DNA from: Candidatus Saccharimonadota bacterium
Lineage (GTDB): Archaea; Nanohalarchaeota; Nanosalinia; Nanosalinales; Nanosalinaceae
Assembly: GCF_029232205.1 (NCBI RefSeq)
Contig: NZ_CP107255.1
Coordinates: 60,001 to 92,000 of the forward strand
Direction of reading: 5' to 3'
Length of the DNA stretch: 32,000 bases
The notes under the pieces are model-generated. The model saw nothing but the letters and a program-made list of their open reading frames with translations, ran no database searches and had not been told where the DNA came from. Positions within the stretch are counted from its first letter, which is position 1. Each line of letters opens with the position of its first letter. Of this stretch, positions 302-29,273 are shown piece after piece. A program made the position numbers and the translations under genes.

Positions 302-2368
302 CTACCAGTCGTCCTTGCTTGCGCAGTCGGGATCTATACACATCTGGTAGTCCCTTCCTTTCTTTCTCTGAACATCGATCATCGGCTTTCCACATGTCTC
401 ACATTCTTTATCCAGACTGGAAATCTTTCCGTTGTTCGGAAGCGGGTATGTGTTTTCGCAGTCAGGGTAGTTGGAGCAACCCACAAACTTGCTGCCGTTT
501 GACTTGATAATTCTGAGTTTTCCGCCTTCGCGATCTTCTTCCTCACATTTATCGCAAGGCCCGAGAGTTCTCCTTCTCTTTCTCTCGGAATCAATAGTAT
601 CTACTAGCTGAGCACCAATCTTGGCCTCGTTCTCCTTGAATTTTTCCAGAGTCTCCTTGAGTTCTTCGCGGGCCTTTGAGAGAACGTCTTCTCGTGACTC
701 CTCCTCATTTCTGATTGACTGCATGTTCTCCTCGAATTCTCGGGTAAGTTCTTCGCTGAGAAGTGTTGGAGAGTACTCTTCGAGTGTTTCGACAATTGTC
801 AGGCCTAGATCTGATACCTCGATTGGATCTTCTTCAATATAGTTTCTGTTGTAGAGCCTGTCAACTACCTGTGCTCTCGTGGCCTTTGTACCAAGATTCT
901 TTTTCTCAAGTTCGGATACGATACCTGACTGGGAGTATCTTCTTGGTGGCTGTGTCTCTTTCTCGTCAAGTCTGAAGTCCTCGATATCCAGAACTTCTCC
1001 TTCTTCGAGGCCTGGAAGCTCTGCTTCTTCAACTCTGACGTATGGATCGTAGAGGTCAAACCAGTTTCTTTCCTTGGTGACTTTTGACTTGGCCTTGAAT
1101 TCGTGGCCTTCAACATCAAGTGTCAGTGTCAGTGACTGTCTCTTTGCTGCATCGCCGAATACCGCGCAGAAGCGCTTGGCAATCAGATCGTAGACCTGAC
1201 CTTCTCTCTTGGAGAGGCCCGAAGGATGTTCTCCTGTAGGATAGATTGCAGGGTGTGCATCGTCTTTCTTTTTACCCTGTCGAGGATATCTGTCGTCATC
1301 GTCTTTTTCAAGCACTTTTTTGGCGGGTTCCTCCAGTTTATCCTGCTTTTTGAGCTTCTTCAGAATATTTTCGTATCCAATCTTGGCAGGAAGCTTCTGC
1401 GACTCGGTACGCGGATAAGAAATCAGGCCGTTCTCGTAAAGAGTCTGTGCAATGGCCTGAGTCTGTTTAGGATTAATATTAAACTGTGAAGAGGCCTCTT
1501 TCTGAAGGCCTGTTAGGTTGAAAGGAATTGGAGGGTTGTGCTTGTAGTTATTGACCTTGATATTTGATACGTGTGTCTTTGTGGCGTCTTTTACTCTGTT
1601 GAATACTCCTTCAGCGACGTCCTCGTTCCATATTCGGTCTTCGTCGTCCTCCCACTGGGCCTCGAACTCTTCGTGGATCAGGTAGATTTCCCAGTAAGGA
1701 TCTGGCTCGAAGGCCATGATTTCGCGTTCTCTGTCTGCTAGAACTTTCAGTGCTGGGCCCTGTACACGCCCTGTTGAGAGTGTTTTGTATCTGTCGTTTT
1801 CTCTTACTGCCTGCATCAGTGCTCTTGAAACGTTGACACCGTAGTAGAAGTCCAGGAAGTGTCTTGTGAATCCGGCCTCTGTCATTCCTTTGTCGTAGCC
1901 TTCTAGATTGTCGTAGGCCTCTTGTAGGTCGCTTGCTGTCAGTGTTGAGAACTTCATTCTTTTGATTCTGTCTTCTGGCGCGTCAGCAATCTGTTTTATT
2001 ACGTTGGCTCCAATTACAGATCCTTCAAGGTCGAAGTCGCATGCGTTGATGTATTCGTCGGCCTTTTCGATCTGGTCGCGTAGGTTGTTGTAGTATTTTT
2101 TCATGTAGTCAGCGGAATCATCGGTTTCAAATGTTGGAACCCATTCTACATCGAATACAGGGTAGTCCCATCCTTCGCTGATCTGTTCAAGGTTGAATAT
2201 GTGGCCTACTGCTGGCGCAATTATTATCTGGTCTGTGCCCTTGTCTATAATGTAGTTTTTGACTCCACGGTTCTCTTCGATGGAGTAATCTCCCAGGGCC
2301 TGGGCGATACGGCTTGCTACCTTCGGTTTCTCACCAATCATTACTGTTGTTGCCATTGGTTTATCCAT
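302..2368 (-). CDS. topA: DNA topoisomerase I (type IA)
   Basis: 688 aa. N-terminal Toprim (MIGEKP..., DFDLEGS). Type IA core (GRVQGP, ISYPRTES with the catalytic Tyr context). C-terminal Cys4 zinc ribbons (CDKC...CSNYPDC, CETC...CIDPDC). Confidence 0.95.
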   Translation of the reverse strand: MDKPMATTVMIGEKPKVASRIAQALGDYSIEENRGVKNYIIDKGTDQIIIAPAVGHIFNLEQISEGWDYPVFDVEWVPTFETDDSADYMKKYYNNLRDQIEKADEYINACDFDLEGSVIGANVIKQIADAPEDRIKRMKFSTLTASDLQEAYDNLEGYDKGMTEAGFTRHFLDFYYGVNVSRALMQAVRENDRYKTLSTGRVQGPALKVLADREREIMAFEPDPYWEIYLIHEEFEAQWEDDEDRIWNEDVAEGVFNRVKDATKTHVSNIKVNNYKHNPPIPFNLTGLQKEASSQFNINPKQTQAIAQTLYENGLISYPRTESQKLPAKIGYENILKKLKKQDKLEEPAKKVLEKDDDDRYPRQGKKKDDAHPAIYPTGEHPSGLSKREGQVYDLIAKRFCAVFGDAAKRQSLTLTLDVEGHEFKAKSKVTKERNWFDLYDPYVRVEEAELPGLEEGEVLDIEDFRLDEKETQPPRRYSQSGIVSELEKKNLGTKATRAQVVDRLYNRNYIEEDPIEVSDLGLTIVETLEEYSPTLLSEELTREFEENMQSIRNEEESREDVLSKAREELKETLEKFKENEAKIGAQLVDTIDSERKRRRTLGPCDKCEEEDREGGKLRIIKSNGSKFVGCSNYPDCENTYPLPNNGKISSLDKECETCGKPMIDVQRKKGRDYQMCIDPDCASKDDW

Positions 2369-3489: not shown

Positions 3490-4752
3490 CTAAACTTCCA
3501 GATATTCCTGACCGCCCATGTAGTCCTGTAGAGGTTCTGGGATCTTGACTCCTTTCTCAGTCATGTTGTTCTCAATAATTGCTGTGATAATTCTCTGAGG
3601 CACAAGGCCTGTTGCGTAGACTGTGTAAGGAGTCTTTCTTTCTCCTTTTTCTCGGTACTTGGTGTCGAACTCTCGGGCCTGGTAGTCTGTACAGCTACCG
3701 TAGCTGCCGACTTCTCCGTACTCTCCTAGAGGAGGCCTCCAGACCTCGATATCGTACTGTTTGAAGGTCTTATTGGAGATGTCGCCGTCGCAGATGTCGA
3801 CAACTCTGTATGGAAGGCCTAGCTCTTTCATGATTTTCTCTGCGTTGCCAAGGGTTTCTTGGAGAATGTCGAGATGGTTTTCTGGTTTGCAGAATGCGAA
3901 CTGTTCTACTTTCTCGAACTGGTGGACTCTCCAGAGGCCTCTGGTCTGTTTTCCGTGTTTTCCGGCCTCTCTTCTGAAGTTTGTGGAGTATCCTCCTAGT
4001 TTGAGGGGGAGGTCTTCTTCTATTACTTCTCCCTGGTATTTTGCTGCCAGTGCGTGTTCTGCTGTTCCGATCAGGTATCTTCCGTTTTCGTTTACCTGGT
4101 AGAGCTGGTCTTCGAATGTTTCCAGGTCTACAGCTGCTGCGATGGATTTTTCTTCCAGCATGTACGGTACCTGATAGACTCCGAAGTCTCTTTCTTTCAG
4201 GAAGTCGATTGAGAAGTTGATGAGTGCCTGGCTTAGTTTGAGTAGTTCCGGGTCTAGGAAGTAGGCTCTTTCTCCTCCTACTTCTGTGGCCTTTTCTGCT
4301 GTTAGAAGGTCGTGTTCTTCCAGGAAGTCGGCTGCGAGTTCGGAGTCTTCTTTTCTGCCGTTTTCCGGTTCCCAGTTTCTGAGTTCTGGGTTGTCTTCCT
4401 CACCTTCTCCTTCGGGTACGTCGTCGGCCAGAAGGTTTCCGACCTGATATCTTACTTCATCGCGTTCGTCTTTTAGTTCGTCGACTTTGTCTTCTAGCTC
4501 GCTTATGCGCTGTTTTACTTCCTGCATACGCTCTATTTTTTCGGAGGCATCCTCGCCTTCCTTTTTAAGTTCCGCGATCCTGTCTCCTACTTCGTTTCTT
4601 TCCTGTTGTAGGCTTTCAAGTTCCTGTAGTTTTTCTCTCCATTCTTTGTCGAGTTCAACTACTTCATCTACTTTTTCAGGGTCCTTTCCACGCCTTCTCT
4701 GCGCGTCCTTGATGTCCTCAGGATTATCGCGGAATACTTCTATACTGATCAT
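3490..4752 (-). CDS. serS: seryl-tRNA synthetase
   Basis: 420 aa. N-terminal coiled-coil tRNA-binding arm, then a class II core (NFRREAG...RVHQFEKVEQF, GEYGEVGS...). Confidence 0.95.
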   Translation of the reverse strand: MISIEVFRDNPEDIKDAQRRRGKDPEKVDEVVELDKEWREKLQELESLQQERNEVGDRIAELKKEGEDASEKIERMQEVKQRISELEDKVDELKDERDEVRYQVGNLLADDVPEGEGEEDNPELRNWEPENGRKEDSELAADFLEEHDLLTAEKATEVGGERAYFLDPELLKLSQALINFSIDFLKERDFGVYQVPYMLEEKSIAAAVDLETFEDQLYQVNENGRYLIGTAEHALAAKYQGEVIEEDLPLKLGGYSTNFRREAGKHGKQTRGLWRVHQFEKVEQFAFCKPENHLDILQETLGNAEKIMKELGLPYRVVDICDGDISNKTFKQYDIEVWRPPLGEYGEVGSYGSCTDYQAREFDTKYREKGERKTPYTVYATGLVPQRIITAIIENNMTEKGVKIPEPLQDYMGGQEYLEV

Positions 4753-4788
4753 ACTTAACCACTTATGCAGAAATTTTTATCTAGAACA

Positions 4789-4949
4789 GGTTTTGGGATC
4801 CGAAGCTCTCTGAGTTTCTGGTTGCAGAAACTTCGCAGAAGTTTCGAATAGAAAAGGCTCTCATCAAGCCTGGTTGGTTGCAATATGCGTCCGGTGAGAA
4901 AAGCGTCCACCTTTCATTGTAGAAAGGTATTTTTACACTGATCTTTAAA
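4789..4949 (-). promoter_or_regulatory. conserved structured upstream element of serS (copy A), including leaderless mini-ORF 4864..4917 (MKGGRFSHRTHIATNQA)
   Basis: Shares ordered blocks with 7267-7405, including an identical 16-mer at 4904-4919 and 7355-7370. TTTAAAG box at 4943-4949 (minus orientation), 26 nt before ATG 4917. Hairpins at 4802-4818, 4814-4831, 4827-4845 and 4855-4871. Confidence 0.5.
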
Positions 4950-5006
4950 CGGTTTTACACTGCTGAAACCCCAATCTTTATATGTTGTCATGAGCAAGTA
5001 GTAATT

Positions 5007-5480
5007 ATGGATGATTATGCTGAGGCCATGGATTATCTGCAAGAGTTTGATGAGAAACTTGGAGAAGAAGGTCTTGAGCTAGAAGGAGTGCTTATTGGCC
5101 AGGCTGCTCTCTGGGAGTATGCTGAAAGATATGATGAAGAGATGGAGGGCCGTGAAACTGATGATATTGACATTTATGTTCCTGACGTGATGCAGGCCTT
5201 TGATATTGCAGAGCTTTATGATGAAGTACCTCAGCAGACAGGTACCCGGCTGGAAGTTGACAAGGATCCGGAGATGTACATGGATCTTATATGGGATCAT
5301 CCAATGGCGGAAGAGTTTGTTGAAGCGATGGAGTCTGAAGAAGCAGAGATGGTTGAAGGACTTGAGAACATCGATCTCTACCTGCTTCCTGAAGACGTGT
5401 ACATTGAGAGCAAGAGAAACGCTGGAAGGGAAAAGGATGATGAAGATATTGCAAAGCTAGAGCAAATGATGGCTCTTTAA
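5007..5480 (+). CDS. putative minimal nucleotidyltransferase-fold protein (AbiEii/DUF6036-like)
   Basis: 157 aa. G-x-A...T-D-DIDIYV resembles the hG[GS]...D-x-D NTase signature. The C-terminal SKRNAGREKDDEDI resembles the K..AgR.KD..Di motif of this family. TATA-like CTTTATAT lies about 25 nt upstream. Assignment is from motif memory only. Confidence 0.4.
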   Translation: MDDYAEAMDYLQEFDEKLGEEGLELEGVLIGQAALWEYAERYDEEMEGRETDDIDIYVPDVMQAFDIAELYDEVPQQTGTRLEVDKDPEMYMDLIWDHPMAEEFVEAMESEEAEMVEGLENIDLYLLPEDVYIESKRNAGREKDDEDIAKLEQMMAL

Positions 5481-5481
5481 C

Positions 5482-5862
5482 CTATTTTTCTAATTGCAGA
5501 AGCTTTCTTTTTACATCGCTGTTTGATTCTCCGAGGTAGCCTCCGACTGAGTTCTTTCCAACTACTCTGTGGCATGGAATGATGAGTGGTAGAGGGTTCT
5601 GGGAGAGGGCCTGACCTACGGCTACAGGTATTCCGTCGACTTCCTCAGCTATATCTCCGTAGGTCTTGGTTTCTCCATAATCTATTTTCTGAATTTCTCG
5701 TAGAACATCTCCGACGAAACCTTCCGGTATATCATATTCAAGGTCAAATGTTTCCCGGTCGCCGTTGAAGTATTCGTTAAGCTGCTCGTTTACTTCTTCC
5801 CGCGGTTCCTCGATCAACTGCTCGTACACATTCAAGGTACGGCCGTAGATAGTGATCTTCAC
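5482..5862 (-). CDS. ogt: methylated-DNA--protein-cysteine methyltransferase (short form)
   Basis: 126 aa with the PCHRVV active-site motif and the YGDIA...helix-turn-helix region. GTG start. Confidence 0.85.
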   Translation of the reverse strand: MKITIYGRTLNVYEQLIEEPREEVNEQLNEYFNGDRETFDLEYDIPEGFVGDVLREIQKIDYGETKTYGDIAEEVDGIPVAVGQALSQNPLPLIIPCHRVVGKNSVGGYLGESNSDVKRKLLQLEK

Positions 5863-5941
5863 AACTGAAATTGTATCTGGATTCTTTTTAGTTCAACGCC
5901 AATCACTCTACATCATAAAGATGCCTGCACAATAACTTTAC

Positions 5942-6142
5942 ATGAAAGAAGTAGCAGGCTACAAGTTTGATGAAACACATCCTCTAGAACTGAAGGAAAA
6001 AGTAGTAACAGAAAAAGAGTTCGACAAGATAAAAGAAGCAATGGATCTTGCAGATAATATCAGATTTGGAAAAAGGCCTTTCGACGCTCCACCAGGAAAA
6101 GTACGTGTCTGGGTTGAAGAAGACGATCCTGAAGAAGAATAA
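5942..6142 (+). CDS. hypothetical small protein
   Basis: 66-aa ORF. CATAAAG box about 25 nt upstream of the ATG. Followed by a hairpin terminator candidate. Confidence 0.45.
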   Translation: MKEVAGYKFDETHPLELKEKVVTEKEFDKIKEAMDLADNIRFGKRPFDAPPGKVRVWVEEDDPEEE

Positions 6143-6159
6143 AAGATATGTAGAAATGT

Positions 6160-6180
6160 AGAGGCCTTTTTACGGCCTCT
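6160..6180. terminator. bidirectional hairpin between convergent genes (AGAGGCC-TTTTTAC-GGCCTCT)
   Basis: 7-bp perfect stem (6160-6166 / 6174-6180) with a T5-containing loop and T-rich flanks. It lies between the stop of 5942..6142 (+) and the stop of tyrS (-). Confidence 0.5.
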
Positions 6181-6184
6181 TAGT

Positions 6185-7210
6185 TTATTTGAGGTACTCT
6201 GGTTTTTCGTGGCCTATTTCTTCGAGTGGCTGCAGTAGTTCTGGTTCTTCTTTGAATCTTTCTCTTACTGGTTCGAGTCTTTCTACTGCTTCTTCTGCTA
6301 CGGCCTCTTTCAGGTCCAGTGGGTGGAGTTCTCCTGATTTGAAATCTTCAGCCATGTCTTCGAAGTTTTCGTAGTGGAGGTCGCCTCCGTATTCTTCTTT
6401 TCTCTCTATTTCAAGTTCTCTGTCTGCTCCGAAGATGAAGAAGTTGGCGATCTGGATGATTGGGTTGTCCTCTACTTCTCCCTGCGGGCAGTATGCGTCT
6501 TCCAGTACGTCTCTGATTCTTTCTGGGTCGGCGTGTAGTGGGAACATTGTGTTCTTCTTTGATGAAGACATTTTGTCTCCGTCTCCTGCCAGTGAAGATA
6601 GTAGAGGCCAGTGTAGGCATGTTGGTTTTTCGTATCCGAGTTTTGGTAGTTGTTCTCTTGCGAGCATGTGGATTTTTCTCTGTTCTATTCCTGCTACTGC
6701 AAGGTCGAGGTCCAGGTGGACGATGTCGAGGGCCTGCATCAGCGGGTATACGATCTGGCTGATGTAGACTTCGTCTTTGTCTCTGAGATCGTGCTGCATG
6801 CTTCTTTCTCCACGGTTGATTGTTGTTTTCTGTGTCATTGTCAGTAGGTCGTGGAAGTATTCGTCGCTTTCCTGGAAGTCTCTGCCGTGTACGTATTCTG
6901 CGTCGAGGCCCAGTGCTTCGAATGTTGCCTGCCAGTAGTCGATCATTTCTTCGATCCAGTCTTCCTCTCCTTTCTTGTTGAGGAATGTGTGTAGGTCGGC
7001 CCAGAGGATTACGGGTTGGAAACCTGCTTTCTGGATGTCCAGCATTTTACGTACTGAGATCCAGTGGCCCAGGTGTACAGGCCCTGAGGTTTCGTATCCT
7101 ACGTATGCGCGTGGTTCGTCTTTTTCCTTTAGTATTTCTTCAAGCTCTTCTTCCTGGATTATTTCCTCCGAGTTACGGAGTACCAGATTCTTACGTTCTT
7201 CATTATCCAT
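6185..7210 (-). CDS. tyrS: tyrosyl-tRNA synthetase (archaeal type)
   Basis: 341 aa, collinear with M. jannaschii TyrRS as I recall it (EEELxEILKxxxxxAYxGxExSGxxHLGH..., KMSSSK, ELHPxDLKxAVAEE). Confidence 0.95.
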   Translation of the reverse strand: MDNEERKNLVLRNSEEIIQEEELEEILKEKDEPRAYVGYETSGPVHLGHWISVRKMLDIQKAGFQPVILWADLHTFLNKKGEEDWIEEMIDYWQATFEALGLDAEYVHGRDFQESDEYFHDLLTMTQKTTINRGERSMQHDLRDKDEVYISQIVYPLMQALDIVHLDLDLAVAGIEQRKIHMLAREQLPKLGYEKPTCLHWPLLSSLAGDGDKMSSSKKNTMFPLHADPERIRDVLEDAYCPQGEVEDNPIIQIANFFIFGADRELEIERKEEYGGDLHYENFEDMAEDFKSGELHPLDLKEAVAEEAVERLEPVRERFKEEPELLQPLEEIGHEKPEYLK

Positions 7211-7266
7211 TTTCGATCTACCTGTGGAAAATTTTTGAGAGAACGCTTAAAGAGCTGTTGATAGAA

Positions 7267-7405
7267 GGTTTTATGGCATCCGAAGCAGCTACTGCTTCTG
7301 GATTAGAGAAACTCGTTGCGAGTTTCGATTGTTTCAAACTTCCGCTGATAAAAACGTCCACCTTTCATTGGTATCAAGGATGTATTCGGTCTGAAATGTT
7401 AAATT
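7267..7405 (-). promoter_or_regulatory. conserved structured upstream element of tyrS (copy B), including leaderless mini-ORF 7303..7368 (MKGGRFYQRKFETIETRNEFL)
   Basis: Paralogue of 4789-4949. AATTTAAC box at 7398-7405 (minus orientation). Hairpins at 7282-7298 (7 bp) and 7308-7326 (8 bp) keep their pairing through double compensatory changes relative to copy A. Confidence 0.5.
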
Positions 7406-7468
7406 GTTACGGAGAAAGGCCAGAAGGTTGCGGTCAGACCCAATGTTTTTCTTGGAGCTGTAAATATT

Positions 7469-11976: not shown

Positions 11977-12501
11977 ATGGGATTTGTGGAGAAATACGGT
12001 GTAGCAATTGTTGCAATTTTGATTGGAGGCGGTTTCGCATTCGGTGGAATAGCTTCTTACTCAGGCCTTACATCGGGTGGAGGATCAAACAATAATCAGC
12101 AGCAGGATGTACCACAACTGCCTTCACAGTCAATTAGTGAAGGCCCTCTTGACTTGACAAGCAGGGAGAAAAGCTATCTTGCAGCAGTGAATGATGTCGT
12201 GTTTGTAACTGGTTACTACAATACTTCTGAAGGCCGCTCGCAGGTTGAAACAGTGGAAACTGTTCAGAGCAACTTTGGGGAAAAAATGTACTTGAACTAT
12301 GTGAATACCAGTGAGATTCCTGCACAGACCCAGCTTCAGCAGACTCCAGCAGTTCACGTTGTTGGAGCTGTCATTCAGAACCGGCAAGCCGTTCCACAAC
12401 AGGGATTAGTCTACAATATTACGGAGCAGAACGTAGCTTCTTCGACCTGTAGCTACATCAGGGAGCTTCCTGACTCCGCAGTTGTCTACTGCTTCGGCTA
12501 G
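11977..12501 (+). CDS. membrane-anchored hypothetical protein (N-terminal TM helix, Gly/Asn/Gln-rich linker, extracytoplasmic domain)
   Basis: 174 aa. The hydrophobic segment VAIVAILIGGGFAFGGIA is followed by a low-complexity linker. CTTTATTT box 25 nt upstream. Confidence 0.55.
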   Translation: MGFVEKYGVAIVAILIGGGFAFGGIASYSGLTSGGGSNNNQQQDVPQLPSQSISEGPLDLTSREKSYLAAVNDVVFVTGYYNTSEGRSQVETVETVQSNFGEKMYLNYVNTSEIPAQTQLQQTPAVHVVGAVIQNRQAVPQQGLVYNITEQNVASSTCSYIRELPDSAVVYCFG

Positions 12502-15290
12502 ATATCGAAGGCCTTTGCAAACTCGGAGTCTCCCTGCACATTCTCCGAGTATTTCTCAAGTTTTTCTCTAGCACTCTCATCTGTCTGGGAGGCTGATACA
12601 GCTCCTTTCTCGCCAATTAAAGTTACACAGGCCTCGTGTTTTCTGGAGAGCTTCTGAGCTACCTGGATGAGCAGGCCTACGTTCTCTGTAGGTACTTCAA
12701 GTTCGACCTCATCTTTTTCCCCTATTTCGTCTTCTACGAACTGTTCTATCTCTGATTCAAGGCCTTCAACTTTTTTCTCCAGGTTCTTTCTCTGTTCGTA
12801 CAGCTTTCTGGCCTTTTCAACAGTATTTTCCTCTTCAATTCTTTCTACACTGGTTTCCTTGCCTAGGAATTCGCCTAGTTTCTCTACTCTGCTGGTGTTT
12901 TCCTCTATCTCCTCGTTGAATCTGGTGATTGTGTCTTCCAGGTGTTCTGGCTCTACTGAGAGAATACTGCATAGTTTTCTCTCTACGGTACGAGGCCTTG
13001 ACTTTGACTCTGTTTCCAGGAGGGTTTCTACTTCCTCGATTCTTTCCTGAATACCTTTGATGTATTCTTCTGCAGCGTTTCCTGCTACGTATTCGAGTCT
13101 GATAACTCCGTCCTGGATTCTTTTTGAGCCTGTGATGTAGAAGTTTTCTGCGTGGCCTGTGTTGGTGAGGTGTGTTCCTCCGCAGGCTTCGATGTCGATG
13201 TCTTCGATCTCTATAAGTCTGATCGTGTTGCCCGGCGGTGCACCTCCCTGGTAGATTCTGAAGCCGTACTGCTGTTCGGCCTCACTCTTCGGCATCTCCA
13301 GCTCGTTGATATCGTGTTCTTCGTTGATCATTTTTCTGACGCGGGCCTCGATCTCGTCAAGATCTTCGCGTGAAAGTTTCTCATAGTGTGTAACGTCGAG
13401 CCGTGCTTTTTCCAGTGTCTTGTTGGCGCCGGCCTGGTAGATATGTTCGCCAAGTTCTTCACGTGCTGCAGCGTTCACCATGTGGGTCGTGGAGTGGTGC
13501 TGGGTCAACTGCTTTCTCTTCTCGCCGTTGACCACACCCTTCACGCGCTTCCCTTCTTCAAGTTCGTGCTCTGGTGTTCGATGGAGTACCACGTTGCCCT
13601 GTTTCTGAACCTCCTCTACTTGATGGCCGTTGATCTTTCCGACGTCGTAGCGCTGACCTCCGCCCTGAGGATAGAACATCGTCTGATCAAGAACAACCCA
13701 TTCATCATCAATTATTCCGACTACCTCAGCCTTGAAGTTGAAATGTTCGGTCTCTCCATCCTGCCTGTAAGGTTCACGTCGCTCGTAGTACAGTTTTTCC
13801 GTGTCTGGAAGGCCTTCTACGTCGAATTTTTCCTCTGCTGCTTTTACTGTCTCATCTTCTTCGCTGACTATCGTGTAGAAATCTTCAGGTACTTCCAGGC
13901 CGTATTCTTCCATCATTTCAGGAGATACGCCGTGCGATTCGTAGAGTTCTACCATTTCCTCGACTGATGGCTGGCCTTCGACTTTTTCCAGTTGTTCGCG
14001 GGCTTTTTCCCGTGCTTTATCGTATTTCTGTTTTTCGACTCTGAGTATTTCCTCTATCTCATCCATTGAGGCCAGAAGCTCTGGGAACATGTCTTCAAGC
14101 TCCTCTGCGTTCCAGCGGGCGACCTCTACCATGTCCAGATCCCAGTCGTATTTTTCGATGAAGTCCTGGGCTCTTCTGTAGATCATTCTCAGGTTGTAGC
14201 CTCCCCCTGTGTTTGAAGGTATTTTTCCATCGGCTAATGCGAATATGAGTGCGCGGGCGTGTTCTGCGATGCTGTAGAGTCCTGCTGCCGGCTTAATCTC
14301 TGCCTTCAGTTCGTCGACGTCTTCATTTATTTTCTCTGCTATTTCTTCCCATTTTTCGTCGATGTCCTCCACTTCGTCGATGTTGAGTTCGGAGCTGTGT
14401 GGAAGGAATTTTTCCCATACTTCCTGGTCGATCTTGAGCCCGGTCTTCTCCTTCATTTTTTCCAGAGTCTCCGGCATGACGGACTCATAGGATGTTTCTG
14501 TACCGTTGGAGATCCATGTGATTCTTTCGTGGCCCATTCCCATGTCCAGTACTTTGAGATCTAGCTCTTCGTAGCCTTCTGGTGTCTGCTCGTAGAACAT
14601 ATAGACCTGGTTGAATAGCTCTAGGCCGTCTACGAAGAACTCCATGCATGCACCTAGGTTTCCTCCTCCGCCCCAGCTGTCTTCGTGTAGTATAAGTTTT
14701 TCTTCAGGTATTCCAAGGGCCTGTGTCGTGAATTCGAACATGTCACGGAAGTAGCGATCCTGGTCATATTCCTCACCTTCTTTGAAGCACGTCTGGCCTA
14801 TCATCGTGAAGTTTGTGTAGTGTCTGCCGGTGATGCCAACGTTGTCAACGTCATTGAAGCGTAAAGAGGGTTGTGGTATTATTAGTTCGTCTGCTGGTGG
14901 CTCTGCTTCGCCTGATACGACGTATGGCTGGAAGCAGTAGATTGATGCGCCTGTGAATTCTACGTCGTCTCTCCATCGGGCCACTACAGGGTATCTGTCG
15001 ATCGAGGTGTATCCACGAGATACCATGAATTCTTCGAAAAGTTCCCAAGATTCTGTATGGGTTAAAGTTTCCGAGGTAGGTGAGTCATTGATGAATGTGT
15101 ATCCGTCGCCGCATTCCGGTTCTCCGCAGATTTCTCTTTCGGGATCTGAGCTCCAGAAGTATAGTCCGCAGTTGCTGCATTGGCCTCGGTGGAATCCTTT
15201 TTCTCTTAGTACGTCTGTTGCGAAGAATTTCTCTGGATTATCTGATGCTTCCTGTTTGATTTCTTCTTTGAGTTGGTCGAGGCCTTTCAT
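12498..15290 (-). CDS. alaS: alanyl-tRNA synthetase (archaeal type)
   Basis: 930 aa. N-terminal C-x2-C...FW element of archaeal AlaRS. Editing-domain HxxxH (HHSTTHM) and CGGTH. C-terminal DHHA1-like region. Confidence 0.95.
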   Translation of the reverse strand: MKGLDQLKEEIKQEASDNPEKFFATDVLREKGFHRGQCSNCGLYFWSSDPEREICGEPECGDGYTFINDSPTSETLTHTESWELFEEFMVSRGYTSIDRYPVVARWRDDVEFTGASIYCFQPYVVSGEAEPPADELIIPQPSLRFNDVDNVGITGRHYTNFTMIGQTCFKEGEEYDQDRYFRDMFEFTTQALGIPEEKLILHEDSWGGGGNLGACMEFFVDGLELFNQVYMFYEQTPEGYEELDLKVLDMGMGHERITWISNGTETSYESVMPETLEKMKEKTGLKIDQEVWEKFLPHSSELNIDEVEDIDEKWEEIAEKINEDVDELKAEIKPAAGLYSIAEHARALIFALADGKIPSNTGGGYNLRMIYRRAQDFIEKYDWDLDMVEVARWNAEELEDMFPELLASMDEIEEILRVEKQKYDKAREKAREQLEKVEGQPSVEEMVELYESHGVSPEMMEEYGLEVPEDFYTIVSEEDETVKAAEEKFDVEGLPDTEKLYYERREPYRQDGETEHFNFKAEVVGIIDDEWVVLDQTMFYPQGGGQRYDVGKINGHQVEEVQKQGNVVLHRTPEHELEEGKRVKGVVNGEKRKQLTQHHSTTHMVNAAAREELGEHIYQAGANKTLEKARLDVTHYEKLSREDLDEIEARVRKMINEEHDINELEMPKSEAEQQYGFRIYQGGAPPGNTIRLIEIEDIDIEACGGTHLTNTGHAENFYITGSKRIQDGVIRLEYVAGNAAEEYIKGIQERIEEVETLLETESKSRPRTVERKLCSILSVEPEHLEDTITRFNEEIEENTSRVEKLGEFLGKETSVERIEEENTVEKARKLYEQRKNLEKKVEGLESEIEQFVEDEIGEKDEVELEVPTENVGLLIQVAQKLSRKHEACVTLIGEKGAVSASQTDESAREKLEKYSENVQGDSEFAKAFDI

Positions 15291-26501: not shown

Positions 26502-29273
26502 CTACTCGATCACTATCGCAGGCCTTCCAGGCTCTGCTCTTGAGGCCTTATCCTCTGAAGACTCATCCTCGGTCTCAACCTCGATTTCCGCGTCGAACTC
26601 CTCGGCCCATCTCCTCACGTTTTCGCCAAGAGCATCGGTCTCAGCGGCCTTCTTCATGAACTGTCCTTCGAACTTGCCAGGGTTTTCGACGGCCTCTACA
26701 ACCATCTGATTGACATCCTGTGCGTGCTGCTTGAGCTCGCCGTCAAGCACCTCACTCATGATGTCGCCGACATCTCTGAGCTCCAGATTATCGATTATAT
26801 TGGTGAAGGCCTGGTATTTCCAGTCTGCGGCCTGAATAATCTTGACATTCGAGGCCTCGCCATCGATCATTTCCTGGATATCTCTGATGTCGCTGGATAC
26901 TCTGTCAAAGTATTCGTCGACTCTCTCGGCCTGTTCATCGAGCAACTGCTCGTCTACTTCCGGCCAGTTTGAGTCCAGCATGAATTCTTCATGCCCTAGT
27001 TCTTCCCAGAGCTCTTCGGCGGTGTGCGGCGCATAAGGCGCGATAAGCTGGATCAAGGTTTCTACGCCGTGGCTGAAAATTGCAGGATCTGCATCGCGCT
27101 GTTTGTACCAGTACAGTTTTGTTAGGAGCTTATCGATTTCTCCGATAGCAAGGTTGAATTCGTAGTTCTCGGTGGTTTCGGTAACTTCTTCTATCGCTCT
27201 CTGTATCCTGCTTGAGACAATTCTATCCTCAAGATCTGAGTCTTCGAGGCCTGGTTCTTCATCGGTAAGCAGATCTTCATTTTCTTCTACAATTCTGAAA
27301 ACTCTCTGAAGCATCTCTCTGGAGGCTTCTACGCCGTCTTCGCTCCAGTCAAGTTCTTTGGTAGGATGCGAGGCCCGGAGGATAAAAGTCCTTGCCGTAT
27401 CTGCTCCATTCTCGTTAATAAGCTCAGTTGGATCCACTACATTGTGCTTGGACTTGCTCATTTTCCGGGTTTCTACTTCTACTTCTCTACCACATTTCTC
27501 ACATATATTCTCTCCTTCTACCTCATCAGGATACAGCCATCCATCCTCCGGACATTTGTATGCTGGATGGTTTACCATTCCAAGTGTAAGCAGTCTCTCG
27601 AAAGGCTCGTCCTCTTCAAGCATCTCTTCATCTCGCAGGAACTTTGTGAAGAATCTTGCGTAAAGCAGGTGCATAACTGCGTGTTCGATGCCGCCGATAT
27701 ACTGGTCTACGTTCATCCAGGAGTTTGCATCGTCAACGTCGAAAGGAGCACTGTCAAGTTCTGGTGAGATGTATCTTAGGAAGTACCATGAGCTTCCAAT
27801 AAATGTATCCATGGTATCTGTCTCTCTTCGAGCTTCTCCACCACACTCAGGGCATTCTGTGTGTTCGAAGGTGCCTGAAGTTTCAATTGGGTTTCCTGTT
27901 TCAGTGAACTCCACGTCTTCTGGAAGCTCTACAGGAAGGTCATCCTCTGGAACAGGGACTACGCCACATTTGTCACAGTAGACTACTGGGATCGGTGTAC
28001 CCCAGTAACGCTGCCTTGAGATCAGCCAGTCACGAAGCTTGTAGTTAACATCCTCTTCTCCAAGGCCTTCGTCCTCTAAATGTTCGATTATTTTTTCTAT
28101 TCCGTCGTCTTTGTCCAGGCCGTCTAAGAATCCTGAGTTTACGTGGTCGCCATCACCTTCATAGGCCTCTTCCTTGAAACTGTGGTCGCCTTCTGGTTCA
28201 ACTACTTTCTGAATATCTATTCCGTGCTCCTGCGCGAATTCAAAGTCTCTCTGATCGTGTGCTGGCACAGCCATTATCGCTCCGGTTCCGTAGTCTGGAA
28301 GGACGAACTCTGCAACATAGATTGGGATTTCTTCTCCTGTTACAGGATTTTCTGCGTATTTTCCTGTGAATACTCCGGCCTTTGATTTTTCCTCTCTTTC
28401 TTCGTCATCTTTCTTCTTGGCCTCTTCGATGTATTCTGCTACATCTTCGTTTTCTTCCGCTACTTCTTCCGCTAGCTCGTGTTCTGGAGCCAGGGCCATG
28501 AATGTTGCTCCAAAGATAGTGTCAGGCCTTGTAGTGAATACTTCTAGTTCTCCTTCATCTTTTACTGGGAAGTTGATTTTTGCACCTGTGCTTTTGCCGA
28601 TCCAGTCGTGTTGCATCTTTCTGACTTTCTCAGGCCATCCATCAAGCTGCTCAAGATCCTCAAGAAGTTCGTCTGCGTACTCTGTGATGCCGAGTTTCCA
28701 CTGCTTCATGTCTTTCTGTTCTACAACTGAGTCGCATCTCCAGCACAGGCCATCTTCTACCTGTTCGTCAGCTAGAACTGTTTCGCAGCTTGGACACCAG
28801 TTTACTTCTGAGTTTTCTCTGTATGCTAGGCCTTCTTCCAGCATTTTCTGGAAAATCCACTGGTTCCATTTGTAGTACTCCGGATCGCAGGTCGCTACCT
28901 CTCTATTCCAGTCATAGGAGAATCCTAGCCTCTTTAATTGGCCTCTCATGTTGTCAATGCAGTCACGTGTCCATTCTTCTGGGTCTACATCGCGATCGAT
29001 AGCTGCGTTTTCTGCAGGAAGGCCGAATGCGTCCCAGCCCATTGGATGCATCACGTCGTAGCCCTGCATTCTCTTCATTCTTGCTGGAGCATCTCCTAGA
29101 GAGAAGTTGCGGACGTGGCCCATGTGGATATCTCCGGAAGGGTATGGGAACATTTCCAGTACATAGTATTTTTCAGAGTCTGTGCGCTCTGCTTTGTGAA
29201 GTTCTGCGTCTTCCCATTTTTTCTGCCATTTTTCTTCGATCTGTTTGAGCTGTTCTGCGAATTCTTGGGCCAT
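26502..29273 (-). CDS. leuS: leucyl-tRNA synthetase (bacterial-type architecture)
   Basis: 923 aa. PYPSG.IHMGHVRNF, GWDAFGLPAE, NWCPSCETVLADEQVEDGLCWRC and KMSKSK are collinear with E. coli LeuS as I recall it. Confidence 0.95.
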   Translation of the reverse strand: MAQEFAEQLKQIEEKWQKKWEDAELHKAERTDSEKYYVLEMFPYPSGDIHMGHVRNFSLGDAPARMKRMQGYDVMHPMGWDAFGLPAENAAIDRDVDPEEWTRDCIDNMRGQLKRLGFSYDWNREVATCDPEYYKWNQWIFQKMLEEGLAYRENSEVNWCPSCETVLADEQVEDGLCWRCDSVVEQKDMKQWKLGITEYADELLEDLEQLDGWPEKVRKMQHDWIGKSTGAKINFPVKDEGELEVFTTRPDTIFGATFMALAPEHELAEEVAEENEDVAEYIEEAKKKDDEEREEKSKAGVFTGKYAENPVTGEEIPIYVAEFVLPDYGTGAIMAVPAHDQRDFEFAQEHGIDIQKVVEPEGDHSFKEEAYEGDGDHVNSGFLDGLDKDDGIEKIIEHLEDEGLGEEDVNYKLRDWLISRQRYWGTPIPVVYCDKCGVVPVPEDDLPVELPEDVEFTETGNPIETSGTFEHTECPECGGEARRETDTMDTFIGSSWYFLRYISPELDSAPFDVDDANSWMNVDQYIGGIEHAVMHLLYARFFTKFLRDEEMLEEDEPFERLLTLGMVNHPAYKCPEDGWLYPDEVEGENICEKCGREVEVETRKMSKSKHNVVDPTELINENGADTARTFILRASHPTKELDWSEDGVEASREMLQRVFRIVEENEDLLTDEEPGLEDSDLEDRIVSSRIQRAIEEVTETTENYEFNLAIGEIDKLLTKLYWYKQRDADPAIFSHGVETLIQLIAPYAPHTAEELWEELGHEEFMLDSNWPEVDEQLLDEQAERVDEYFDRVSSDIRDIQEMIDGEASNVKIIQAADWKYQAFTNIIDNLELRDVGDIMSEVLDGELKQHAQDVNQMVVEAVENPGKFEGQFMKKAAETDALGENVRRWAEEFDAEIEVETEDESSEDKASRAEPGRPAIVIE

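Follow-up and report, generated by a model that had tools for sequence, protein, structure and literature searches.

Two related elements lie in this stretch of DNA, one upstream of tyrS (copy B) and one upstream of serS (copy A), raising the question of what the element is, which of its parts matter, and on which strand it is read. A sequence-only reading of the window (the whole stretch of 32,000 nucleotides that was analysed) had aligned the two copies block by block, and the blocks are indeed where it placed them, the same set occurring in copy B (7267-7405) and copy A (4789-4925). The window contains exactly two copies of the 16-mer CAATGAAAGGTGGACG, each on the minus strand, against 0.25 occurrences expected from dinucleotide shuffles. 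Core-motif scans of the sequence collection recovered 49 distinct leaders, all on nanohaloarchaeal contigs, a sample that exact-motif searching biases toward conserved cores. Each of the 49 lies upstream of an aaRS gene, upholding the suspected linkage of the element to such genes. Rejected along the way were i) about three quarters of the genome-contig matches to the 16-mer, which are chance bacterial occurrences without context; ii) 8 chance matches in a scan of viral contigs, none of them nanohaloarchaeal; and iii) the Ga01263xx metagenome repeat family, which shares AAATGAAAGGTGGACGTTTT and is unrelated. We conclude that both window copies are 5′ leaders of nanohaloarchaeal (DPANN) tyrS and serS mRNAs.

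The features of the two leaders, all on the minus strand, are as follows.

Copy B and tyrS
6185..7210, minus: tyrS, archaeal-type tyrosine--tRNA ligase (NCBIfam NF006330, E = 2e-121)
7215..7222, minus: SD-like GGTAGATC upstream of the tyrS ATG (7208-7210)
7218..7352, minus: +1-frame ORF, crossing both hairpins and ending at TAG (7218-7220), 7 nt short of the tyrS ATG
7267..7272, minus: AAAACC box, then a second TATA-like element, TTTAAG (7246-7251)
7282-7298, minus: hairpin 2 (stem 1 of the sequence-only reading), GAAGCAG/CTGCTTC, optional cassette
7308-7326, minus: hairpin 1 (stem 2 of that reading), GAAACTCG/CGAGTTTC, optional cassette
7303..7368, minus: frame-0 mini-ORF, MKGGRF-Y-QRKFETIETRNEFL and stop, starting at the predicted 5′ end of the transcript
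7348..7353, minus: proposed +1 shift site TTT-TAT (P-site Phe, A-site Tyr; tRNA-Phe would re-pair on UUU)
7357..7362, minus: SD-like GGTGGA, invariant in the leaders including diverged ones, 3 nt (CGT) before the slip codon
7398..7405, minus: TATA-like box AATTTAAC, ending 27 nt before CAATG, putative promoter

Copy A and serS
3490..4752, minus: serS, bacterial-type serine--tRNA ligase (TIGR00414, E = 1e-117)
4758-4764, minus: SD-like AAGTGGT of serS
4755..4901, minus: +1-frame ORF, to TAA (4755-4757), 2 nt before the serS ATG
4789-4794 and 4774-4781, minus: AAAACC box and second TATA-like element GATAAAAA
4802..4845, minus: twin-hairpin cassette, stems at 4827-4845 and 4802-4818
4856..4870, minus: Ser-class hairpin GGCTTGATGAGAGCC, with the frame-0 stop in its loop
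4864..4917, minus: frame-0 mini-ORF, MKGGRF-S-HRTHIATNQA and stop; codon 7 is TCT (4897-4899), cognate to serS
4897..4911, minus: GGTGGA-CGC-TTT-TCT (SD-like element, spacer, slip codon, Ser codon)
4943..4950, minus: TATA-like box GTTTAAAG, putative promoter

A Candidatus Nanohaloarchaea genome encodes a TyrRS 92% identical to the one encoded here. An archaeal topA is also present in the window.

Hairpins, strand and promoters

The pairing on which the sequence-only reading had built its case is real. In copy A the stem at 4827-4845 is GAAACTTC/GAAGTTTC and that at 4802-4818 is GAAACTC/GAGCTTC, with a single A.C mismatch on the minus strand; in copy B, flanking ATCC/GGAT lengthens hairpin 2 to 7278-7302. 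The twin-hairpin fold of copy B reaches -22.1 kcal/mol, where shuffles average -9.0 (z = -5.1); for copy A z = -3.6, and the minimum-energy fold is an alternative in which the cassette halves pair with one another. In an alignment of 6 cassettes, 97.8% of cells are paired, pairing is lost when the 3′ partners are shifted as a sliding control, and 5 pairs have changed on both sides (1.2 expected; reached by 1 of 500 shuffles), although all 5 double changes come from copy B and thus represent one lineage event. Four such compensatory changes had been counted earlier. The hairpin said to be missing from copy B is indeed confined to copy A of the two (4856-4870), and is kept, with changes, in other serS leaders.

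Pairing is one thing and conservation another. The twin hairpins form a cassette of 51-54 nt that is present in 8 of the 49 related leaders and missing from 41, so that the stems stand as structures but not as a conserved functional core. In the closest genome (L001, TyrRS 92% identical) the orthologous tyrS leader is free of hairpins; the serS leader of the same genome has the cassette at another position, and the cassette occupies two different positions among the leaders as a whole. A twin-hairpin HMM run over the scanned DNA placed the cassette mainly in leaders, and a looser structural scan of about 0.4 Mb of nanohaloarchaeal DNA found GAAAnnn...nnnTTTC hairpin arrays at 4 unrelated sites off the leaders (L001 17703-17746, L045 448-514, L039 7605-7682, and L160 13842-13911). 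The possibility raised beforehand as fatal to the hairpin reading, that the blocks belong to a dispersed repeat family, is therefore partly borne out, since copies at unrelated sites and presence or absence between close genomes are both REP- or MITE-like. With REP/BIME palindromes and MITEs the cassette shares short arrays of two or three hairpins, conserved stem ends (GAAA...TTTC), free interior sequence, unrelated intergenic locations, and variability between close genomes; as a point of difference, neither an associated transposase nor a clear target duplication was identified.

What is conserved is what had been taken for the flanks. The TGA-AAAA-CGTCCACCTTTCATTG block is the 5′ core plus a sensor codon, the GGTTTT block is the AAAACC box, and the difference between TAT and TCT within the core follows tyrS versus serS. 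The mini-ORF at 7303-7368 and the AATTTAAC box at 7398-7405, both correctly located before, turn out to be central to the element.

The strand question can be regarded as settled at the level of the family, on the comparative sequence evidence, in favour of the aaRS sense strand. All 49 leaders are co-oriented with their aaRS gene, the window elements accordingly being read on the minus strand, and the 49 leaders show an A/T-rich information peak at -34 to -28 relative to the ATG and an invariant CA at -2/-1. An independent plus-strand small RNA, kept earlier as a live alternative, is unsupported, because the plus-strand hairpin and T5 of copy A are not conserved; nor is there a conserved T-run terminator across the leaders. 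We find it barely credible that the covarying hairpins are themselves the functional unit, whether as a structured cis-RNA or as a divergent plus-strand small RNA. In its favour are stems that covary and are significantly stable, and a mismatch in copy A that is A.C on the minus strand but G.U on the plus. Against it, 41 of the 49 leaders do without the hairpins, among them the leader of the tyrS orthologue in the closest genome; where present, the hairpins take up two different positions, and they recur at non-leader sites; and the TATA box, ATG, sensor codon and reading frames that mark the family all lie on the aaRS sense strand.

Closer to the gene, the AAAACC box and the second TATA-like element, about 22 nt before the ATG, are also found at the leader-less alaS and leuS of the window and at the leader-less serS of L004, which has a homologous TTCTAGTTAAAAATTTCC upstream. 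They are thus probably the ordinary aaRS core promoter, and the second TATA-like element is probably the ancestral promoter. Pairing of the AAAACC box with the 5′ core or the aaRS SD was sought, and only helices of 4-5 bp without covariation were found. SD-like hexamers precede the leader-bearing aaRS genes, and none were seen in the leader-less ones examined.

A mini-ORF with a cognate codon

The mini-ORF reads M-K-G-G-R-F-X, where X is a codon for the amino acid of the downstream aaRS. In copy B codon 7 is TAT (7348-7350), cognate to tyrS. Across the family it is i) TAT or TAC (Tyr) at tyrS; ii) TCT, TCC or TCA (Ser) at serS; iii) ACT or ACC (Thr) at thrS; iv) GGA (Gly) at glyS; and v) CAT (His) at an operon ending in hisS. 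Among the Tyr, Ser, Thr and Gly classes, with aaRS identities from blastp and NCBIfam, codon 7 agrees with the downstream gene in 44 of 45 testable leaders, a match with a chance probability of about 4.5e-7 even when each class is counted as one event. Diverged cores for which the exact motif was not required obey the same rule (MKGGCF-S and an AAG-synonymous MKGGRF-S at serS, MKGGCF-Y at tyrS), and a Trp class (...KGGRF-W or ...KGGCF-W) heads GNAT-(M20)-trpS operons in L192 and L193. A TrpRS was also located in L177 by tblastn, where trpS has no leader; a candidate TrpRS in L004 proved by protein search to be a TyrRS paralogue. The mini-ORF is 11-38 codons long and carries a single cognate codon at a fixed place rather than a run, and the upstream ATG occupies 5 different positions, each in frame with the sensor codon.

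A triplet matched to the aaRS is also what the specifier of a T-box-like riboswitch would look like, and the 44 of 45 agreement, together with the His and Trp classes, is what such a leader, binding its cognate tRNA without translation, would give; GGUGG moreover resembles the T-box core. A further point for that reading is the tyrS leader of L160, in which T6 replaces T5, so that the ATG frame reads TTA while TAT is retained in the GTG frame; a mutation in this allele or a faulty assembly may account for it, but it is also compatible with an ATG-independent reading and to that extent counts against the frameshift proposed below. We nonetheless consider a T-box-like riboswitch very unlikely. 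The UGGA is fixed over six amino-acid classes instead of covarying with the discriminator base; placed only 7 nt 5′ of the triplet, it has neither the order nor the distance that a spanning tRNA would require; no Stem I-like or antiterminator structure is present; and an upstream ATG keeps frame with the triplet whichever of five distances separates them. Rfam gave no hits over the window at gathering thresholds, and a search of 4700-7450 for the T-box (RF00230) at E up to 10 gave none, with chance snoRNA and CRISPR-repeat noise away from the leaders. The T-box analogy was dropped on order, spacing, and the absence of discriminator covariation.

The +1 frame and a proposed frameshift

The cognate codon closes an invariant unit: SD-like GGUGGA, then CGY, then slippery UUU, then the codon itself. 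GGUGGA stands 3 nt before the P-site codon at every site, being GGUGAA at one. After a +1 slip the P-site triplet would be UUU (Tyr, Ser, Trp) or UUC (His), allowing perfect re-pairing, or UUA or UUG (Thr, Gly), on which tRNA-Phe would re-pair at only two of three positions, a point that counts against frameshifting. Variants at codon 6 (CCC, GUU) are also shift-prone: UUU-U, UUU-C, CCC-U, CCC-A and GUU-U all re-pair fully or are of known shift-prone types, and the one CCU-A site would re-pair poorly. Of the words at -18 to -3 of 155 long ORFs of these genomes, AGGT and AGGTG are the most enriched. If AGGUGG meets the anti-SD in the canonical register, the spacing to the P site would be nearer to that of initiation than to the strained 3 nt of prfB, which would weigh against a prfB-like shift.

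The frames beyond this unit are unequal. In 42 of 43 leaders (which, being related to one another, do not amount to 42 independent events) the +1 frame runs open from the core to a stop at -12 to +10 nt relative to the aaRS ATG, where shuffles predict 0.07-0.5 per leader; 13 leaders have an overlapping ATGA. Frame 0 reaches the zone of the aaRS ATG in none of the 43, stopping at least 47 nt before it in every case, and frame -1 does so in about 4. As in prfB, frame 0 thus closes early and the functional continuation is in +1. In the window, the +1 frame of copy B comprises 47 codons counted from the core GTG, and that of copy A corresponds to an entry of the ORF list (4755..4910, 51 aa, GTG start). 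Three further independent leaders share the architecture, and the +1 frame of L127 continues without a break into TyrRS as an in-frame fusion. In operon variants the +1 frame of the sensor site is a GNAT, AbrB-like or 285-aa ORF; the GNAT ORF is exactly the +1 frame of the Trp sensor, the GTG in the core being its only start of its own, and the his operon of L052 carries three serial sites, with the next ORF in +1 after each. Two Trp-type units (L176 and L103) speak against frameshifting, as their +1 ORFs end about 150 nt before anything recognisable.

The match between codon and aaRS, the unit of SD-like element, spacer, slip codon and sensor codon, the frame architecture, and the operon variants can be read from the sequences directly. 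On their strength we consider it likely that a prfB-like +1 frameshift at a hungry codon senses tRNA charging and turns on the aaRS by translational coupling. Slippage in the P site is favoured when a starved or rare codon leaves the A site empty, as at CUU-AGG-C of Ty1 and under aminoacyl-tRNA limitation in E. coli. Transcription would start at or beside the A preceding the ATG, as the TATA spacing suggests, so that ribosomes would begin directly on the mini-ORF M-K-G-G-R-F-X, and with UUU (Phe) in the P site the codon X, cognate to the downstream aaRS, would stand in the A site, where its decoding should be slow under limitation. When aminoacyl-tRNA(X) is plentiful, X would be decoded and the ribosome would stop in frame 0 at least 47 nt before the aaRS start, with nothing further. 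When it is scarce, the A site would stay empty and the peptidyl-tRNA would slip +1 on UUU-N, perhaps aided, as the bacterial prfB shift is, by pairing of the GGUGGA 3 nt upstream with the 16S rRNA 3′ end; the shifted ribosome would carry on in the +1 frame, open over the whole leader, terminate on or beside the aaRS start (ATGA, TAAATG and similar), and re-initiate there with the local SD. Under-charging of the product tRNA would thereby yield more synthetase, a homeostatic feedback loop. The transcription start, frame-0 translation, the anti-SD role and re-initiation are inferences, as is the frameshift, which is drawn from the frame architecture alone. A trans-frame GNAT protein or +1 leader peptide would begin MKGGRF... 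or MTQDASTKGGRF... (MTQDASTKGGRF-GTLQLNLH... for GNAT), whereas a GTG start would give (M)DVF.... If the second promoter still fires, much aaRS mRNA would skip the leader, which tells against the frameshift.

A leader peptide without any shift would do part of this work. In such a scheme the ribosome stalls at codon 7 for want of the charged cognate tRNA and, for example, either remodels the RNA or shields its 5′ end, as in ermC-type induced stability, where a stalled ribosome protects the 5′ end from 5′-to-3′ decay, and the aaRS is translated from its own SD. Several features would suit it: a mini-ORF that begins at the 5′ end and has its cognate codon in a set position, an SD-like core that could hold a paused ribosome, the SD-like hexamers upstream of the aaRS ATG, and, among the Gly, His and part of the Thr leaders, stable hairpins that begin with the sensor codon. 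The scheme leaves unexplained why 42 of 43 leaders keep the +1 frame open as far as the aaRS start, why GNAT, AbrB-like and 285-aa ORFs occupy the +1 frame of sensor sites, and why the codon before the sensor is constantly shift-prone. RNAalifold on 4 classes, with inspection, gave only class-specific local hairpins, with no conserved terminator/antiterminator pairs or SD-sequestering helices in any class; and the distance to the 5′ end varies in the Trp class, where the ATG is 6-42 nt further upstream, making protection by a stalled ribosome less attractive. We therefore hold stalling without a frameshift to be rather unlikely.

The open +1 frame could also be entered by initiation of its own, the GUG in GGUGGACG starting the coupling ORF and the ATG mini-ORF tuning access to it. 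Gene callers do place the starts of the GNAT, AbrB-like and 285-aa ORFs at the core GTG, and 4755..4910 of the window is likewise listed with a GTG start. This arrangement of two independently initiated, overlapping uORFs is nevertheless unlikely in our judgement: the GUG lies 7 nt from the predicted 5′ end without an SD, and is thus neither a leaderless nor an SD-led start; the cognate codon, present only in the ATG frame, is given no role; a ribosome stalled at codon 7 would cover the GUG, giving the wrong regulatory sign; and L127 would constitutively make an N-terminally extended TyrRS. If the frameshift mechanism is true, annotation pipelines mis-start the GNAT, AbrB-like and 285-aa ORFs at an internal GTG.

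Returning to the frameshift reading, the twin hairpins lie within the +1 ORF, downstream of the frame-0 stop and ahead of the aaRS start, and inserts of 51 or 54 nt leave that frame open, suggestive of selection acting on the host element; the hairpins may curb leaky re-initiation, or may be a merely tolerated insertion. The movable parts of the system are an in-frame upstream ATG (5′-terminal in most leaders), GGUGGA, CGY, UUU, and one cognate codon, and we are inclined to think, from these comparisons, that they constitute a portable and re-programmable nanohaloarchaeal recoding cassette that senses charging and controls at least six aaRS genes or operons.

Relation to known regulatory systems

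Almost nothing has been established about how Archaea match aaRS levels to tRNA charging, and the T-boxes and leader-peptide attenuators described so far are, to our knowledge, all bacterial. A search of the literature found no prior description of this leader family. If the proposed mechanism is true, no regulatory +1 frameshift system would have preceded it among the cellular genes of Archaea (for which a 2021 review names just one case of programmed frameshifting, a -1 shift; PMC8211752), and it would provide amino-acid-specific feedback in a DPANN symbiont with a 1-Mb genome. Codon X would then predict what any such leader responds to, and a design of less than 25 nt in which one codon sets specificity is attractive as a synthetic sensor of charged tRNA.

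Like the Gram-positive T-box, these are cis leaders at aaRS genes in which one triplet sets specificity and under-charged tRNA leads to more synthetase. Unlike the T-box, they have no Rfam match, the triplet is read from an ATG, there is no covarying element for the tRNA acceptor, and the proposed reader is the ribosome rather than the RNA, so that the leaders would be a functional analogue of the T-box on an entirely different principle. Attenuators (E. coli pheST, his and trp; mycobacterial uORFs) also use a short leader ORF to sense a specific charged tRNA, and the Cys-rich uORF attenuators of mycobacteria are leaderless sensor ORFs (bioRxiv 10.1101/834739); the present leaders differ in having a single sensor codon instead of a run, in that no terminator/antiterminator helices were found, and in a proposed output that consists of a frame change followed by termination and re-initiation.

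Frameshifting within leaders has precedents. In the ermC leader, ketolide-shifted ribosomes run into the spacer and activate ermC (PMC5009743), so that shifted ribosomes there, as proposed here, leave the leader ORF and activate a downstream gene; the trigger in ermC is a drug, while in these leaders it would be the natural charging of one tRNA. Frameshifting in the pheL leader was judged incidental rather than regulatory, and hungry-codon frameshifting in general has been treated as a starvation effect of unclear use (PMC5009743); if our reading is correct, what was mostly deemed a side-effect of starvation has been harnessed as a sensor.

The closest relative in design is prfB, in which a short frame-0 ORF has an internal SD-like hexamer 3 nt before a slip-prone P-site codon, slow decoding of the A-site codon serves as a gauge of how much of the gene's product is present, and the output comes from the +1 frame (PMC5009743). 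The leaders share the frame-0 ORF, an SD-like hexamer 3 nt upstream that may stimulate slippage, the putative slip codon, an A-site codon that should be slow to decode under limitation (here cognate to the downstream aaRS), and a proposed +1 output. They differ from prfB in that i) a sense codon would await aminoacyl-tRNA, where the stop codon of prfB awaits RF2; ii) the +1 frame is mostly a non-conserved bridging ORF that ends at the regulated start, rather than encoding the gene itself; iii) the register with the anti-SD may differ, the case here being a sequence-based one; and iv) they belong to Archaea, where one cassette serves six amino acids.

Proposed sensor leaders of tyrS and serS

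The window is archaeal DNA, and the best relatives of its TyrRS (up to 92% identity) are all Nanohaloarchaea (DPANN archaea). Copies A and B are read here on the minus strand as leaders, that is, 5′ regions of aaRS mRNAs containing a mini-ORF M-K-G-G-R-F-X whose codon 7 (X) is the proposed sensor codon.

Genes and leader features of the window
302-2368: archaeal-type topA
3490-4752, minus: serS, copy A directly upstream
4755-4757 (TAA) back to 4901, minus: +1 frame of the serS leader, stop 2 nt before the serS ATG
4943-4950, minus: TATA-like box GTTTAAAG of copy A
6185-7210, minus: archaeal-type tyrS, copy B directly upstream
7218-7220 (TAG) back to 7352, minus: +1 frame of the tyrS leader, stop 7 nt before the tyrS ATG
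7398-7405, minus: TATA-like box AATTTAAC of copy B
12498-15290, minus: alaS, without sensor leader
26502-29273, minus: leuS, without sensor leader

The TATA-like box lies 23-27 nt upstream of CA-ATG in both copies; over 49 leaders there is an A/T-rich peak at -34 to -28 from the ATG and a nearly invariant CA at -2/-1, a geometry typical of a leaderless or near-leaderless archaeal mRNA, with its predicted start site at the mini-ORF. The tyrS mini-ORF reads MKGGRF-Y-QRKFETIETRNEFL-stop and the serS mini-ORF MKGGRF-S-HRTHIATNQA-stop, and this contrast at codon 7 mirrors exactly that between the downstream enzymes (Tyr versus Ser). A second TATA-like element about 22 nt 5′ of the aaRS ATG, common to leader-less aaRS genes, probably gives basal leaderless expression. 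Upstream of alaS and leuS we found AAAACCT or ACCTTCTACAG and, some 22 nt from the ATG, a TATA-like element (GATAAAAAAA or GATTAAAATAA); neither gene has a Shine-Dalgarno (SD) sequence there. These regions suggest leaderless mRNAs and a promoter-proximal motif common to aaRS genes.

The twin-hairpin cassette

The sequence-only reading had described blocks shared by the two copies, which are indeed in place, and paired stems, which are confirmed by fold energy, pairing and shuffle tests. Specifically, i) the 16-mer CAATGAAAGGTGGACG has exactly two occurrences in the 32 kb, versus 0.25 expected; ii) copy B folds into two hairpins (-22.1 kcal/mol, z = -5.1), and the fold of copy A has z = -3.6; iii) in an alignment of six cassettes, pairing holds in 97.8% of cells and is destroyed when the stem partners are slid; and iv) five pairs in this alignment, to be counted as one lineage because all are in copy B, have changed on both sides, as much as is reached by 1 of 500 shuffles, in agreement with the claim that double substitutions maintain the stems.

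Comparison with the syntenic tyrS-ogt-serS-topA loci of relatives (handles beginning with L denote loci of related genomes or metagenome contigs) reveals that in L001 (strain M3_22), the closest genome, tyrS is preceded by the same 5′ core with hairpins absent, that the L001 serS leader carries the cassette elsewhere, directly after codon 7, and that the serS core of L002 is present without hairpins. The cassette is found in only 8 of 49 distinct leaders, just 5′ of the AAAACC box in six (window tyrS, window serS, L127, L162, L045, and L103) and just after the sensor codon in two (L071 and L099). A structural scan also located arrays of this kind outside leaders, each of two or three hairpins whose ends are GAAA...TTTC and whose interior sequence is free.

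Non-leader hairpin arrays
L001 17703-17746: between two biosynthetic genes
L045 448-514: after a tRNA gene
L039 7605-7682
L160 13842-13911

The MITE-like repeat family that the sequence-only reading had named as a counter-possibility is thus borne out in part, in that similar hairpin arrays lie at non-leader sites. We conclude from both distributions that the cassette is real and structure-conserving, but optional and dispersed; the hairpins do not form the conserved centre of the element. It is extremely improbable that the hairpins are the functional unit, a role contradicted by the distribution of the cassette, or that an independent plus-strand sRNA is, which is contradicted both by that distribution and by the family features, all of which are on the opposite strand (aaRS sense); the plus-strand hairpin and T5 that the sequence-only reading had noted in copy A (4904-4932, plus), a CCTTTC/GAAAGG inverted repeat between promoter spacer and core, are kept neither in copy B nor in other leaders. 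As a separate observation, a tRNA gene in L045 440-700 (minus) is succeeded by an incomplete second copy of its 3′ half and then by an array of three hairpins; the arrangement looks like an integration scar beside the hairpin cassette.

The codon rule across relatives

Scanning one genome per species for the exact motif yielded 102 loci, of which about 26 are nanohaloarchaeal with full context and the remainder are chance matches without context; a metagenome scan gave about 25 more leaders, and diverged members were sought by an HMM search without the exact-core requirement.

Codon 7 and downstream gene (NCBIfam for representatives)
TAT or TAC: tyrS
TCT, TCC or TCA: serS
ACT or ACC: thrS
GGA: glyS
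CAT: operon ending in hisS

In this sample, skewed by the exact-motif searches and made up of phylogenetically related leaders, codon 7 matches the aaRS in 44 of the 45 leaders having a downstream protein in the locus (blastp); the sole mismatch is L160 tyrS, with T6 rather than T5, so that TAT is out of the ATG frame. With each class taken as a single event, five matches would arise by chance with a probability of about 4.5e-7; the His class is represented by one locus. The HMM search recovered diverged cores that keep the rule (CGT to TGT, which yields MKGGCF-S ahead of serS and MKGGCF-Y ahead of tyrS; synonymous AAA to AAG before serS) and a sixth class, TGG, in which MTQDASTKGGRF-W and MKEQLTKGGCF-W head GNAT-(M20)-trpS operons and MAQKGGRF-W occurs in L176 and L103; this class comprises four loci, two with trpS downstream. 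Its ATG lies 6-42 nt farther upstream, yet is in frame every time. As judged from these leaders, the fixed unit is GGUGGA + YGY + NNN + cognate codon, and its distance to the 5′ end is not fixed.

The strict frame of the triplet with ATGs at five distances also speaks against T-box-like direct tRNA binding, for which the L160 variant alone would speak: element order and spacing are wrong, discriminator covariation is absent, and the leaders have no Rfam T-box match, making this reading very improbable.

Several loci deserve separate mention. In the Trp-type units of L176 (~1-310, minus) and L103 (~100-260, minus), the +1 ORFs are 28 and 47 codons long, have a common C-terminal YLQI(S/A)S(I/V)KNFSW, and end about 150 nt before the next unit; no recognisable gene follows in these loci, and a second L176 unit, MEQTENYSTSEAREQGGRF-W, is cut at the locus end. 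The class-I W/Y-family synthetase beside tyrS in L004 (11057-12160) shares about 50% identity with TyrRS and is a paralogue of it, not a TrpRS. The core has 19 nt in common, whether by chance or by descent, with an unrelated dispersed repeat, ttgacagagttattcaaaAAATGAAAGGTGGACGTTTTTTGGGACACAGTGTA, which is present in many copies per metagenome without aaRS context (Ga01263xx contigs, L116-L185).

The +1 frame and a proposed frameshift

Relative to the ATG, the +1 frame is the one in which the GTG within GGTGGACG lies. Among the 43 leaders whose aaRS start is known, 42 keep this frame free of stops from the core until it closes between -12 and +10 nt relative to the aaRS ATG; stop and ATG overlap as ATGA in 13, several leaders have TAAATG or TAGATG, and the Tyr class has AGG-TAG-ATC...ATG. 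Frame 0 closes 47 nt or more ahead of the aaRS ATG in every leader, and only some four leaders have an open frame -1. When the interior is shuffled with dinucleotides preserved, the open-frame outcome has a probability of 0.07-0.5 per leader. Leaders of one class are related, but the four classes are unalignable in this region. Cassette-bearing variants (inserts of 51 or 54 nt) also preserve the frame, as do three more independently found leaders, the L127 +1 frame being fused in frame to TyrRS. The serS +1 frame appears in the ORF list as 4755..4910 (51 aa, GTG); independent initiation at the core GUG is quite unlikely, as it leaves the cognate codon without a role and a plausible initiation signal is absent.

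At the site itself, a +1 slip from UUU would place tRNA-Phe on UUU in the Tyr, Ser and Trp classes and on UUC in the His class, with perfect re-pairing, and on UUA (Thr) or UUG (Gly), with re-pairing at 2/3 positions. The codon-6 variants CCC-U, CCC-A, and GUU-U, classic shift-prone contexts, are rare; re-pairing would be poorer at the single CCU-A site. GGUGGA, invariant 3 nt 5′ of the proposed slip codon (GGUGAA once), looks like an internal SD sequence, since AGGT (26 versus 8) and AGGTG (9 versus 1) show the strongest enrichment ahead of long ORFs in these genomes. A stable hairpin of -9 to -14 kcal/mol with covarying arms begins at the sensor codon or at most 4 nt from it in all 12 Gly leaders, the His leader and Thr subclass 2 (L036, L052, and L058 are examples from these three groups). 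Tyr and Ser leaders lack this hairpin, which may stimulate the shift from the 3′ side.

Two operon variants would be difficult to account for without a change of ribosomal frame at these sites. In L192 and L193, a 240-aa GNAT ORF without its own start except the core GTG coincides exactly with the Trp-sensor +1 frame, and would be a trans-frame product starting MTQDASTKGGRF or MKEQLTKGGCF; this acetyltransferase, between pgk and trpS (L192 1173-1936, L193 2214-2950), is annotated from the core-internal GTG. L052 has three serial sites, UUU-CAU, GUU-CAC, and GUU-CAU: the +1 frame of the first leads in frame into the second, whose +1 frame is an AbrB-like ORF; a GUG overlapping its stop opens a short frame containing the third, whose +1 frame is a 285-aa ORF (no NCBIfam match), with hisS 16 nt later. 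L052 (JBLGBK010000010.1) and L075 (JBLGBK010000002.1), binned as a ‘Colwellia polaris’ MAG, have nanohaloarchaeal-type hisS and serS leaders and genes, and therefore are probably mis-binned.

A pure stalling leader peptide without frameshift would account for the cognate codon, but leaves the +1 frame, slippery codon, and operon fusions unexplained, and we looked for alternative helices in the leaders and found none; we consider it unlikely. We favor regulatory +1 frameshifting, a mechanism proposed from sequence, in which ribosomes would begin at the predicted 5′ end on the mini-ORF and pause at UUU|X for aminoacyl-tRNA(X); when it is present they would complete frame 0 and stop far from the aaRS; when it is absent the P-site tRNA would slip +1, possibly aided by SD/anti-SD pairing, and the ribosome would traverse the open +1 frame, terminate at the aaRS start and presumably re-initiate there, resulting in negative feedback on tRNA charging. 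Leader-bearing genes have SD-like hexamers 6-9 nt ahead of the ATG; such hexamers are absent before the leader-less serS of L004 and L005 and window alaS and leuS. The codon rule, the constant layout of the site, the pattern of frames and the operon variants are read directly from sequence; the transcription start, frame-0 translation, the slip, a part for the anti-SD and re-initiation are inferences.

Full-text searches for the mini-ORF peptide, for leaders or frameshifting in Nanohaloarchaea, and for archaeal aaRS leaders found nothing, and the one cellular programmed frameshift recorded in Archaea is -1, in fucA1 (2021 review, PMC8211752). The site resembles the prfB +1 frameshift site in its layout of a putative SD-like element, 3-nt spacer, slippery P-site codon, and an A-site codon that would be slowly decoded, but the latter is a sense codon in the leaders and a stop codon in prfB. 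The nearest mechanism is that of prfB, along with frameshifting at hungry codons and the frameshift that ketolides induce in the ermC leader (PMC5009743); according to the same review, pheL leader frameshifting appears incidental. Elsewhere, nearest in function is the T-box, and in sensing, leader-peptide attenuation, including mycobacterial leaderless Cys uORFs (bioRxiv 10.1101/834739). Relative to known regulatory +1 frameshifting, the leaders would be new in the ligand sensed (aminoacyl-tRNA), in deployment as a modular leader serving six aaRS classes, and in domain (Archaea).
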